Shown piece after piece: positions 16,093 through 52,672 of a DNA stretch of 64,000 bases. Origin of the DNA: Octopus vulgaris (taxonomy: Eukaryota). The stretch covers positions 43,214,001 through 43,278,000 of the forward strand of contig OX597838.1 of the NCBI GenBank assembly GCA_951406725.2. The letters are read 5' to 3'. Positions within the stretch are counted from its first letter, which is position 1; the number at the start of each line of letters is the position of its first letter. The position numbers and the translations under genes were made by a program. The notes beneath the pieces are model-generated. The model had not been told where the DNA came from. It worked only from the letters and a program-made list of their open reading frames with translations, and ran no database searches.

Positions 16093-16304
16093 TACGGAGA
16101 TGTACTTGCATAGCAAGTGATTTGATCTGAGATCGTGTGCTGAAACGAAAACAATTGCAGCGTAGAAGGTGTTTGTAAGCCATTTAAGAAACACACAAAA
16201 GCCGTTCAATTCACTTCAACATTTAAGTTTAATTTGTCAAAATATTTTCGTCGCTTTAAGACCACGACCTGTTCACTGACAAAAATCCGTGCTGCATCTC
16301 TGTA
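16093..16304 (-). mobile_element. Penelope-like pLTR fragment in (TA)n with a short inverted end
   Basis: Flanked by (TA)n on both sides; termini tacggagatgta and tgcatctctgta are inverted; contains a hammerhead fold. Confidence 0.6.
16233..16283 (-). ncRNA. Minimal type I hammerhead-like motif with G3-C8 core
   Basis: Minus strand reads UUUGUCA GUGAACA G GUCGU-ggucuuaaa-GCGAC GAA AAUAUU U UGACAAA: 7-bp stem I, 5-bp stem II, palindromic stem III. Confidence 0.68.
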
Positions 16305-17271
16305 TAAATATATATATATATATATATATAATAAATAAAATAAATGCGCCCTTTTTAAAGCCTAGGCAGGCTCATGGGCCTGGTTTCCCAGTTTCCGTGT
16401 TATATGTGTTCCCCAGCTGGACAGGACACCAGTCCATCGCAGCGTTGCTTATTTTTGCTAGCTGAGTGAACTGGAGCAATGTGAAATGAAGTGTTTTGCT
16501 CAAGAACACAATGCGTCGCCCGGTCCAGGATTTGAAACCACAATCTTACGATCATGATGCTGACACCCTAACCACTAAGCCACGCACGTCCACACACACA
16601 CACACATGTATATCTGTATATATGGTTACATCATCTAACGTCCACTTATGCTTAATGTGGGTCAGATAGAATTTTCACCAGAGCCCCGTTGGCCAGGCTG
16701 CGGCCCTAATACCGCTAGGTGCCAGACCAATCCGCCTTGGGTGGCCCTATCAGGAACTGAAGTTCCTGACGGCATAGCTCTGACACTGCCCGTTTACACC
16801 ACCCTACCGCTTTGAGGAGGGGTTGGATTTTAGGGTAGTTATCGTAAATCAGGTTGTATAAGAAGGTGTCATTCCTAAAGACCGAAGCAGCAGCATCATT
16901 ATCCACTGCTTACAAGAGCAAAAGGGTCACATTGGAGGGGGAGGTAACTGCAGCAGCACTGATGCCTCTGCTTTCAGTACCCAAGCAGCTCTCACGAATT
17001 AGTAGATAGCTACACCTTCTAGAGATCAAATATTAGTCGAATCAGCGGGTGGGAGCCTCTCACCTGTGATGGAGACCAGTGTGCAGTTAAGTATATATAT
17101 ATATATATACCTGGACTTTCTACTCTCACACACTTCAGCTGCACCTCTCCTGCCCATGCTTTACACTGGACTCCGCTGTTGATGAAAAATCGCTCCAATA
17201 CACCACAAAATTTGAAGCTTTTGAACTTTTTTATACTTTCTAAACTTTTTTTGTACTTTTCTTTCTGTGTT

Positions 17272-17304
17272 CCTTTCTGTGGAAGAGCATAGGCTCGAAA
17301 CGTT
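17272..17304 (+). ncRNA. Degenerate hammerhead motif (same family as 35066)
   Basis: ccttt CTGTGGA A GAGC-atag-GCTC GAAACGTT; the 3' strand of stem I is deleted. Confidence 0.5.
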
Positions 17305-17477
17305 CACTTCCTGAGCATTAAACTAATACATCTGTTTGTTGTCTACACCATGTGTCTTCGTCTTTTGTTTTTTTTTTGTTTTTTGAATTTTCCATTATAT
17401 ATATATATATATATATGTAGGTGGTGCCCCAGCATGGCTGCAGTCTAATGACTGTAACAAGTAAAAGATACAAAAGA

Positions 17478-17868
17478 CAGGTGTGGCTGTGTGGTAAGTA
17501 GCTTGCTTACCAACCACATGGTTCTGGGTTCAGTCCCACTGCACGGCACCTTGGGCAAGTGTCTTCTACTATAGCTTCGAGGCAACCAAAGCCTTGTGAG
17601 TGGATTTGGTAGATGGAAACTAAAAGAAGCCTGTTGTATAAATACATGTGTGTGTGTGTGTGTGTATCTGTGTATGTTTGTGTGTCTGTTTGTCCCCCCC
17701 CCACTTTCGCTTGACAACTGTTGTTGATGTGTTTAACTTAGCAGTTTGGCAAAAGAGACCAATAGAATAAGTACTAGGCTTACACGGAATAAGTCCTGGG
17801 GTTGATTTGTTTGACTGAAGGTGGTACTCCAGCATGGCCATAGTCAAATGACTGAAACAAAAGAATGC
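17478..17868 (+). mobile_element. Full-length tRNA-derived CORE-like SINE, family A, with internal microsatellite
   Basis: Head gtggctgtgtggtaag...ggttcagtccc, core ggcaccttgggcaagtgtcttc, internal (TG)n, and 3' part ending ...gtcaaatgactgaaac. Confidence 0.9.
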
Positions 17869-50092: not shown

Positions 50093-50528
50093 AGGTGCAG
50101 GCAAGGCTGTGTGGTGAGGAGCTTACTTCCGAACCACATGGATCCAGGTTCAGTCCCACTGCATGACACCTTGGGCAAGTGTCTTCTACTTTAGTTTCAG
50201 GCCAACCAAAGCCTTGTGAGTGGATTTGGTAGACAGAGACTGAAAGTAACCCGTCATACATATATATATATATATATATATATATATATATATATATGTA
50301 TCTATGTATGTGTGTGTGTGTGTGTGTGCGTCTGTGTTTGTTCCTCTGACCATTGCTTGACAACTGATGTTGGTGTGTTTATGTCCCTGTAATGTAGCGG
50401 TTTGGCAAAAGAGACTGATAGAATAAGTACAAGGCTTACAAAGAATAAGTCCTGGGGTTGGTCTGACTAAAGGTGGTGCTCCAGTATGGCCGCAGTCAGA
50501 GACTGAAACAAGTAAAAAAATAAAAGAA
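50093..50528 (+). mobile_element. Full-length SINE family A
   Basis: Complete copy with internal (TA)n(TG)n. Confidence 0.9.
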
Positions 50529-51012
50529 TGTGTGTCTATATATATGTATATATATTATATTATTTTTTATTATGAAAATTGTAATTTATATTTTAATTTA
50601 AAACGAAAATTAATGTCTTGGTAAAAAATAGTGAATTGTGTGGAATAATGAAATGACTGATCTGTGATGGGTTGATGTTGGCCTAAGGTCACAAGTCCTC
50701 TACTTTCTGATCCGGTTCTCTGACATTGTTCTGAAATGCTGTGTTTTTTTGCTAATTATTCGTTACTGTCAGTATTTTAAAGGTCAGCTGGCATGTAATA
50801 TTGCTGAATAGGTTGGGTGCTGGTTTGGCTTTCACTCTAGGCTTCTGTTTTATGGGTTTTTTTGTTTGTTTTGGTTTTGTTTTTAAACTAGGCACCTATT
50901 AGCAGCCATCTGCCTTCTCTTGCCAGTCTCTGCCTGTGCACTTAAAACCAGACATTTTTACTAAAGCTTCTCTATTTTACTTTTCCTTTTTTCTCTTATA
51001 AATTTGTTTTAG

Positions 51013-51015
51013 AAG
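51013..51015 (+). other. Candidate 3-nt microexon (AAG) or recursive splice site
   Basis: 44-nt AG-free pyrimidine-rich tract followed by TAG|AAG|GTAAGT in apparently unique sequence. Confidence 0.5.
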
Positions 51016-52328
51016 GTAAGTGTGTGCCTTTTTGCCAGTTGCTTTATCCATTTTCTTTGGGTATTTCAGTTAAACAACTCCAAAAAAGAGAGAGAAAAAA
51101 ACAAAAAACAGAATGAATGAAAGAAAGTAAGAAATGAAAAATTGCTGTGGAATTATGGAATTATCATTAATTAACTATTATTGGTATTATTAAATAATTT
51201 AATTTTGGAGAAAATAAAATTTAAAAAATAAAAGAAAATCAAGGAGGCTCGGGGAGTGTTTTTGCTTGCGTATGATCTGTCTGTGTGGCTGGGAGGAGAA
51301 ACCTTTACTGAAATATATAGATCATGCATATATATATATATATATACATACACACACTCTCTCATACACGTATATTAATATATATATATATACACACACA
51401 CACACATGTATGTAATATATATGTATGATGTAGATGTTTGCTTTTATGTCAAGTTATGTATGTATAAAACCATTTTAACTTTAAACTTGAAGGATTCCAT
51501 ATTTATTAACTTTGACAAGGGAAAAGTTGACAGTGACTTTGAAGTTTTGGTGATGAAGACGAGCAAGTTGAAACTTGTAGGTCATTGCCAACCCTTTACT
51601 TGTAAAAGTTAATGTACGTATGTGTGTGTCCGTGTGTGTGTGTGTGTGTGTGGGTATATATATATATATATATATATATAAGATGTAATGTATATGCATG
51701 TATACATATGTATGTATGTGTATATATAAATATATATATATCAATACACACACATACACACACACACACACACATATATATATATATATATATATATATA
51801 CATATATATGTGTGTGTGTGTGTAGTCATAAAATTTTCCCATGCAAAATAAACTTGTGCTCCCCCCCTCCATCCCAACAGTTATTATTGTGTTTGCCAGA
51901 GAACACAGCACCACCGTTATATCTAATATAATCCATTTATTCACATGTGTCATTAGTCAGATTTGTCATTAATCACATGTTGATTTAGAGTTAATTGTTA
52001 TGAATTTTAGTTGATCAATTCTCAGTTTTCGACCATTTTTTTTTTGTTTCCACAATTCTTTGATTGAAGACACCACCCCATGAAATGTATCCCTGGTGCC
52101 GTGAAACAGCAACAGTGCATTTACATTGTCTCTTGACCCACTAGAAATAGCAGCCAAAACTCTTTCATATCACATGCCACTTTTTTTGTGTTTTTAGAAA
52201 CTCTGGGAGATCCTATTGGGTGTAAGCATAGGGTAGGGGTGGGGGATACAAATAGAAAAAGAAAAGGAGTACCATGGATGGAATGTCTTTGTTCATAGTT
52301 CCTGTCTGTCAAGGTTGGTTTGGAACTA

Positions 52329-52672
52329 CTGTATTTTCTGGCATACAAGTCAACACAGTATATGGGGTAGACATTCAAACACCATCATCATATTTTCAAT
52401 TCCTTCTGAATTTCACATGGAATTTTTCGATCCTCCAAAGTTGTCCTGGTGTAAAAAGTCAACCGAAATGTTTTTCAGTTCTAGGAATAAGAACCGAGGT
52501 TCGAAATTTCCCCCAAGACACCTGATGAAGACTGGAGGATATATTAGCTGAAACGTTGTGTTAACAACAAACATGATGAGGACAAGTCAATGGTAAATAA
52601 TGTAAATAATCTAAATGTTTTTGGCTATAAATTTTGGTCTGGAGAATTTGACTTGTATGCCAGAAAATGCGG
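52329..52672. mobile_element. Tc1/pogo-type MITE interrupted by a hammerhead-bearing fragment
   Basis: TIRs ctgtattttctggcatacaagtcaa and ttgacttgtatgccagaaaatgcgg; relatives near 7326 and 15380. Confidence 0.78.
52517..52562 (+). ncRNA. Minimal hammerhead motif (same family as 26063)
   Basis: GACAC CUGAUGA A GACUG-gaggauauau-UAGCU GAA ACGU U GUGUU. Confidence 0.68.

Follow-up and report, generated by a model that had tools for sequence, protein, structure and literature searches.

Hammerhead ribozymes, inverted pseudo-long terminal repeats (pLTRs) and a bias toward (TA)n microsatellites are known aspects of the biology of Penelope-like elements (PLEs) (PMC4209133, PMC8557442). PAc of Anolis, a PLE of the Penelope/Poseidon type, has one open reading frame (ORF), a hammerhead over the ORF start, two 3′ ends that define a tail and AT-rich targets with target-site duplications (TSDs), and two start sites of its reverse transcriptase (RT) have been shown (PMC11167929). 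Type I hammerheads akin to those of PLE pLTRs are also found in non-LTR retrozymes, which are defined by tandem hammerhead units without coding capacity (PMC7229834; bioRxiv 10.64898/2026.07.22.740005). In Schistosoma SM-alpha, a tandem non-coding repeat for which no linked ORF is named in the text compared, an RNA polymerase III (Pol III) promoter is followed by a type I hammerhead (PMC6765202, PMC8490949). Pol III promoters have been described for non-autonomous mobile elements, namely short interspersed elements (SINEs) and the TRIMp3 group of terminal-repeat retrotransposons in miniature, or TRIMs, and it has been argued that autonomous partners must use Pol II (PMC10886601). Pol III transcription would be unusual for a protein-coding transposon. 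Here we compare with these systems a group of hammerhead-bearing insertions in a 64,000-nt stretch of the Octopus vulgaris genome (contig OX597838.1, positions 43,214,001 to 43,278,000, forward strand; assembly GCA_951406725.2), referred to below as the window.

A preliminary description of the window had noted about ten hammerhead folds and viewed the insertions as non-coding, retrozyme-like parasites linked to PLEs. The link to PLEs was confirmed and the non-coding character was not: four of the families, called A, B, D and E, are the ends of protein-coding, endonuclease-bearing (EN+) PLEs present elsewhere in the genome. At other loci these families run into RT/GIY-YIG ORFs, and the simplest reading of the window copies is therefore that they are 5′-truncated PLE copies. 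Two features absent from the preliminary description are unusual, namely the head of family D, tRNA-derived by its sequence, and the G3:C8 hammerhead core of family B. Taken as a whole, the reading that we favor, and hold to be fairly probable, is that the families are PLE ends formed with two-site priming and that D is a tRNA-headed PLE whose transcripts would be started by Pol III.

The families are named here by the positions of their hammerheads: A (17272, 35066, 49981), A2 (49154), B (16233), C (19277), D (26063, 52517) and E (36277/38933). Genome searches covered the 2.8-Gb assembly (227 contigs) and the top 40–150 candidates were scored, so that all counts given below are samples of best matches; most locus samples take in the window's own copy. 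First-look candidate numbers, which are rough, were 1871 for B, 14 for A, 4360 for D, 1207 for E and 2005 for C, and despite the 14 first-look candidates A-like copies were frequent in loci unrelated to the query. The features of the window are as follows.

16093..16302, minus strand: family B, 5′-truncated 3′ end of an autonomous PLE (1025-aa ORF elsewhere), with (TA)n on both sides
~16233-16283, minus strand: family B type I hammerhead; the G3:C8 core starts at 16276
17272..17395, plus strand: family A copy with a minimal hammerhead, U at core position 6; its 3′ end is followed by (TA)10
19113..19423, plus strand: family C tails-out insertion, hammerhead core at 19281; on the left, the start of the family's tail extension
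25823..25897, minus strand: family D inverted 5′-truncated copy, stopping at the short 3′ end, no tail
25907..25980, plus strand: family D head, tRNA-derived by its sequence, whose A box (25911-25921) and B box (~25955-25965) predict a Pol III promoter of type 2
25981..26016, plus strand: family D internal (TAA)n tract, variable in length
26034..26196, plus strand: family D pLTR body; the ATG at 26034 probably opens the PLE frame; canonical-core hammerhead at 26063-26108
within 26034..26196, plus strand: family D 3′ ends; short 3′ end at ~26165, 26-nt tail to 26196
34969..35203, minus strand: family A insertion in (TA)n, tails-out, with a 75-bp inverted 3′ end and the hammerhead core at 35098; presumably a Neptune-type PLE 3′ end
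36191..39000, no strand assigned: family E tails-out insertion in (TA)n with hammerheads near 36277 and 38933; 3′ untranslated region (UTR) of a young Hydra-type PLE
36191-37436, minus strand: family E left arm with the full 3′ end; 37854-39000, plus strand: right arm, ~70 nt shorter
49066..49260, minus strand: family A2 copy, hammerhead core at 49183, (TA)n at the 3′ end
49895..50020, minus strand: decayed family A copy, hammerhead core at ~50012
52482..52610, plus strand: older family D copy, 5′-truncated and headless, hammerhead core at 52522

The ORF links were established family by family. At one locus (L102), E could be followed from a hammerhead pLTR through an RT and GIY-YIG ORF (one frameshift) and a long 3′ UTR to a second pLTR; much of the ~2.9 kb from ORF stop to 3′ end is microsatellite-rich. 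For E, 1408 relatives were counted at E ≤ 1e-10; its ORF carries the motifs RWR (RWK-like) and SDKT, the linker CNCHDKTTC (CxCX5C) and, at the C terminus, a GIY-YIG domain. With these motifs (DKT included), its hammerhead and its (TA)n targets, E resembles the Hydra clade as defined in PMC8557442, and apart from the ~2.9 kb between stop and 3′ end and a stem II closed by U.U it is an ordinary member. The B hammerhead lay ~1 kb downstream of the ORF in 30/30 loci chosen by the EN protein; an intact 1025-aa ORF exists, and its GIY-YIG domain was identified by Pfam. For A, RT or EN fragments were present upstream on the same strand in 2/6 extended loci. Like Neptune/Nematis PLEs, A and B have a CX2-5CxxC linker ahead of GIY-YIG and a preference for (TA)n; they differ from those PLEs in the fixed G3:C8 core of B and the U6 of A. 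By its linker B may belong to either clade, and A we take to be a Neptune-type PLE. The D ORF is described below. No ORF partner was found for C among the C loci screened, nor any linked ORF for A2. The hammerheads lie within the 3′ pLTR, with ORFs upstream, in A, B, D and E, and two discrete 3′ ends were present in B, C (tail ~130 nt) and D.

An inverted 5′-truncated copy next to the 5′ end was observed in 25/30 D, 8/23 C, 5/30 B and 1/14 A loci, compared to 2/30 for control SINEs (p 1.4e-9 for D). In E the inverted copy lies beyond the 120-nt measuring range, yet it is present in the window and at L102. Five insertions of the window had been described as flanked by inverted arms, and four of these pairs are true tails-out duplications: A (34960-35044/35127-35210, 84 nt counting TA, 99% identity), C (19133-19255/19288-19423, 123 nt, 98%), D (25823-25897/26089-26165, 75 nt, 91%) and E (36260-37436/37854-39000, 1142 nt, 99.5%). 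The fifth, a 12-bp arm (16093/16302), was rejected as a duplication made by insertion. It is internal B sequence: other B copies have the same two ends, and longer copies extend past them.

These results bear on the view that the families are non-coding retrozyme-like parasites that spread via monomers or circles cut by the hammerhead and use borrowed PLE enzymes. An origin from PLE pLTRs has been argued for non-LTR retrozymes (bioRxiv 10.64898/2026.07.22.740005), C and A2 have yielded no ORF, and at one D locus six tandem hammerhead monomers of ~190 nt stand behind a single head. However, the continuation of A, B, D and E into PLE ORFs runs counter to this view and already refutes it for B, D and E. 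The 3′ ends do not coincide with the cleavage site but fall well downstream of it, at two fixed positions, and the junction between tandem monomers was spanned by only that array and one partial match among 43 matches. On the same count, tandem monomer arrays were rejected as the masters of D. The families are mostly single or tails-out and ORF-linked, whereas retrozymes are tandem units (PMC7229834). We regard the retrozyme view as improbable.

Upstream of the hammerhead, copies of family D have in common a 75-nt head and a (TAA)n tract. A hidden Markov model built on 30 tRNA genes of the same genome (six amino-acid classes only) matched 27/30 D heads in register at E < 0.02, and the best single match was to tRNA-Arg(UCG), with ~46/73 positions identical (z 7.8). 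The A box is exact to the published consensus, the B box is one base off, and the spacing is 33 nt (consensus from PMC8969392). The boxes and their spacing have been kept and the cloverleaf has not; the head does not fold as one. Judged by its sequence, the head is tRNA-derived. ARAGORN at its standard setting called no tRNA gene in the window.

The D tail and pLTR continue in frame into a Penelope/Poseidon-type ORF, the lead to which came from a single locus (L356). A consensus of 13 copies has 2832 nt and one 832-aa frame, with the motifs DKG, YGLPKIHK, GxAMGSPLSP and YVDD, a C-terminal VYSIPC...YxGET with CCHH, and no Cys linker between RT and EN; the clade definition used is that of PMC8557442 (DKG, CCHH EN, no Cys linker). 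The head was found ~27 nt past the ORF stop in 6/20 extended loci and in 19/20 EN-end matches. As it directly follows the ORF stop, the head belongs to the autonomous element, and the idea of D as a separate SINE that borrows PLE enzymes was dropped at this point. D agrees with tRNA-derived SINEs in its head, in which the boxes come 10–15 nt after the 5′ end. Since the head is part of an ORF-bearing PLE and the insertions have PLE signatures, D is not a SINE in the sense of a non-autonomous element moved by a long interspersed element (LINE). The EN fragment that immediately precedes a D head at L059 was rejected as the partner, being a Hydra-type remnant into which D had inserted; none of the Hydra-type ORFs and 50 GIY-YIG loci screened matched D as a partner.

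In its single ORF, shared motifs, lack of a Cys linker, hammerhead over the start of the ORF, tail defined by two 3′ ends and AT-rich targets with TSDs, D is like PAc (PMC11167929). It is unlike PAc-type PLEs in that a head with A and B boxes, tRNA-derived by the comparison above, and a (TAA)n tract open the pLTR and in that its consensus is without TTTT. Loci with outward-facing tails made up 37/56 of those analyzed, and the 26-nt tail was at exactly one end in 36/37 of them and at both ends in none (0). In 25 tails-out loci collected with a tail-free query, the tail was on the right in 13, on the left in 11 and at neither end in 1. A tail at a single end agrees with the pair of RT start sites demonstrated for PAc (PMC11167929), and at 36/37 it is a clean genomic confirmation of the two-start-site model of target-primed reverse transcription (TPRT). 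We propose, from in vitro work on the anole Poseidon element, that the GIY-YIG nuclease would nick both strands of an AT-rich target and that the RT would prime at a pair of internal RNA sites, each serving one nick, so that two outward-facing 3′ ends could result.

Among 30 loci chosen by the start of the D ORF, 18 had 120–465 nt of ORF followed by a jump back into the pLTR, and in 3 of these 18 the jump landed on the head start; such mini-tandems could be sources of head-started copies. A different arrangement was observed at L161:7444-8701, where a D insertion has one head of the tRNA-like kind and then six tandem hammerhead monomers of 188–197 nt, with an inverted 5′ copy and a 13-bp target duplication. 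It amounts to a retrozyme-like array from a PLE pLTR. Within the window, at 26030-26060, the D hammerhead is immediately preceded by a conserved hairpin of 4 bp with GAAA and a short palindrome after it; the whole looks like half of a second hammerhead in decay, and the likely start codon lies within its span.

Where D copies begin is informative about their transcription. Head-free queries yielded a sample of 74 D loci. In 30 of them the copy begins at the head start, and 1 extends upstream; 21 stop inside the head or at the edge of the (TAA)n tract, and 22 later. Nearly all intact heads (91/96) have their end no more than 10 nt upstream, in most cases a few bases ahead of the tRNA +1. A Pol III start would be expected to leave ends upstream of +1, and RNase P would not. 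Release of the head-started copies by RNase P, cutting a tRNA-like fold inside long Pol II transcripts, would account for the 12/96 heads that end exactly at +1, but most ends retain 1–7 template bases upstream of it and the head does not fold as a cloverleaf; we think this the least likely of the explanations considered, and very improbable.

The second line of evidence is the absence of TTTT, at which transcription would stop, from the sense strand of D. There are 0 in the 2832-nt consensus, compared to 7, 9, 16, 17 and 8 in five other PLE ORFs, and 0 in the reference for the head and (TAA)n tract. The probability of finding none was 0.014 under a mononucleotide model, 0.03 with the element's own codons permuted and 0.003 with the codon usage of controls; by the codon tests, depletion of TTTT was absent in 4/4 control PLE ORFs. 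From these data D is likely transcribed at least partly by Pol III. We hypothesize that Pol III would start ~13 nt upstream of the A box and produce a transcript with head, (TAA)n, hammerhead, tail and then ORF, as no TTTT would stop it, and that the element's own RT may bind and copy such RNAs, giving copies that begin at the head.

A number of observations weigh against Pol III-started transcription of D, or against parts of our reading more generally. Rfam reported no tRNA in the D heads, and ARAGORN with a relaxed threshold called only 4/30 of them on the sense strand. No single intact D copy with a full head and a whole ORF was seen, the 832-aa frame being that of the consensus. Under a dinucleotide model the probability of zero TTTT is 0.064. 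In RNA reads from a related species (unstranded cDNA, searched with the head masked), D was covered equally in both orientations, and most reads run into the flanks with no pile-up of ends, a pattern of little weight in fragmented cDNA. The EN end of D gave 2254 first-look candidates compared to 2021–4360 for pLTR queries, so that ORF-linked copies are numerous; because best-scoring matches were picked and such copies are numerous, the pile-up of 5′ ends at the head is possibly overstated. Many inversions join at the head start, a short palindrome that could itself favor truncation and fold-back. The clade labels, lastly, come from motifs and pairwise BLASTP rather than from a tree with labelled references. 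Family D sequence was also present in sequencing runs under six organism labels from 10 studies; none among the listed runs containing it was recorded as RNA.

Several of these points would be expected if the head were a passenger, i.e., if a tRNA-derived SINE head had once entered the 3′ UTR of a Pol II-transcribed Poseidon-type PLE, with RT stalling or fold-back at the palindrome producing the ends and with the lack of TTTT due to chance. The many ORF-linked copies, the palindrome with its inversions, the dinucleotide result and the resemblance of the RNA reads to read-through all agree with it. However, direct D copies start at the head even where the inverted copy is cut elsewhere or absent, the boxes and their spacing have been kept where the cloverleaf has been lost, and the codon-level probabilities (0.03 and 0.003) have no counterpart in the four controls. 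On balance we consider a passenger head unlikely, though of appreciable probability.

The Pol III-started reading can be carried further, to a PLE whose whole 2.8-kb RNA would be made by Pol III from a captured tRNA promoter, with an RT-EN gene purged of terminators and a pLTR amplifying as a built-in SINE, in a genome whose active PLE hammerheads would use C3:G8, U3:A8 and G3:C8 pairs. This full version is a tentative one that we consider possible, and rather more doubtful than not. If true, D would offer a natural setting in which to test whether Pol III can transcribe an RT gene and how a SINE can arise inside its partner. D is like the TRIMs Helenus, Ajax and Cassandra (TRIMp3) in having a small-RNA-derived Pol III promoter in its terminal repeat, predicted in D, with the boxes kept and tRNA function lost; those TRIMs are non-autonomous LTR elements of at most ~1.3 kb, whereas D is a PLE with the head in an ORF-bearing autonomous element (PMC10886601). 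It is like SM-alpha in that a promoter, again predicted in D, precedes a type I hammerhead; unlike the tandem SM-alpha repeats (PMC6765202), D is dispersed, shows the tails and inversions of PLEs, and serves as pLTR to an RT gene of its own. D may thereby offer a route by which SM-alpha-like and retrozyme repeats arise from PLE pLTRs. A literature search, with Repbase, Dfam and the supplements of PMC8557442 and PMC13282606 outside its coverage, found no PLE with a tRNA or Pol III head; the octopus repeat annotation reports 31 recently active PLE families, such detail not being given in its text (PMC13282606).

The hammerheads themselves were supported at the level of families, rather than by single-copy folds. 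All ten folds of the preliminary description were located where it had placed them. A relaxed descriptor allowing one core change gave 9 window matches scoring at least 8, compared to 0.76 ± 0.86 (maximum 3) in 25 block shuffles; five of the nine correspond to previously described sites (16276, 19281, 35098, 49183 and 52522) and four lie at other window positions. The sites at 17272, 26063, 36277, 38933 and 49981 fell under the cut-off because of copy mutations or a U.U closure of stem II. Folding of eight single copies was weak (z −2.05 to +0.75). An Rfam scan of the window had no hammerhead or tRNA among the matches listed (150 of 349), and D copies likewise had neither; minimal PLE hammerheads, like the decayed D heads, score under the thresholds of such models. 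With a 3:8 pair, GAAA, a UH site and three stems, the families fit the type I hammerhead class, and self-cleavage is predicted.

The families differ in their cores, which could be compared as the family patterns used in the searches fixed stems II and III and left the core and stem I free. The D core, CUGA(A/U)GA, is canonical in 70/75 copies, and position 7, at which 39 copies have A and 36 have U, is the single free position of the hammerhead core. C is canonical in 6/9 copies. A, with U at position 6 and position 7 free, and A2, with mostly C at position 4, depart from the conserved core. These two are related (71–73% local identity, identical stem II), and a C-G pair of stem I in A is exchanged for G-C in A2; the fold at 49154 is thus not from an unrelated family, as had been counted among about five. 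Similarly, the tiny palindromic stem III that had been noted for most of the folds does not extend to E, whose stem III has 4 bp and an 8-nt loop and whose stem II is closed by a U.U pair.

In B the core reads G3-U-G-A-A-C8-A, i.e., G3:C8, in 36/39 copies, and the same pair is present in 28/29 parsed cores of ORF-linked B copies, which differ from the window's subfamily in loop II and have the same stem II. Its fixation in a young family with an intact ORF suggests that selection keeps the 3:8 pair. A U3:A8 core, a known natural variant (PMC4209133; PMC3088659), occurs in a separate PLE family of the same genome, and C3G/G8C has been reported as an engineered partial rescue (PMC11167929). No natural G3:C8 core was found in a literature search that included PMC3884650 and had Lunse et al. 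2017 (PLE hammerhead variants), Repbase and Dfam outside its coverage. An ORF-linked PLE family with C at core position 4, as in A2, was observed at three loci (L425, L432, L433).

The (TA)n on both sides of three insertions, as previously noted, was correct for B, A and E, and the preference for (TA)n that had been proposed for the whole set applies to E, B, A and C, and not to D. Scoring (TA)4 or longer within ~30 nt of the 3′ end, first samples gave 24/25 for E, 8/14 for A, 13/30 for B, 8/23 for C and 1/30 for D, compared to 4/30 for SINEs and 144/3420 for background windows; in second samples the values were 29/30 for B, 16/30 for tail ends of C and 3/30 for D. The possibility that such targeting was undescribed is contradicted by its publication for the Hydra, Neptune and Naiad clades, in a study that also describes tails as well as inverted pLTRs and relates the bias to the Cys linker (PMC8557442). 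D has no Cys linker and no (TA)n bias. An EN with a Cys-rich linker (E, B, A) would direct landing in (TA)n, aided by short TA microhomology at the RT start site, and D, without the linker, would land in AT-rich DNA generally. Where other E copies meet the microsatellite, the upstream E pLTR reads on as ATAT, which suggests microhomology priming.

The insertions at (TA)n had further noteworthy surroundings. That of E is bordered by very long (TA)-type arrays (35204-36190, 1 kb; 38989-42119, 3.1 kb), and the A and E insertions are nested in one such array; at other loci, too, a single microsatellite often houses different PLE families. Pieces of decayed Hydra-type PLE ORFs were observed at 44495-44695 and at 19799-20082 (minus strand). 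A further fold-back insertion at 32882-33042 has ~70-nt arms (91% over 162 nt) and (TAA)-like tails, and a relative of it flanks the locus L015; it is possibly another PLE or LINE 3′ end carrying an inversion. An element of ~350 bp with 32-bp terminal inverted repeats (97%) lies at 43439-43791, and is probably a miniature inverted-repeat transposable element (MITE) of a TA-targeting DNA transposon. Elsewhere in the genome several more young PLE families were encountered (L162-L191, L192-L194, L394). A young Hydra-type family with a 727-aa ORF made up most of 63 matches, nearly all of them stop-free; another family has a 717-aa ORF, and a Neptune-type family with a 781-aa ORF has the U3:A8 hammerhead.

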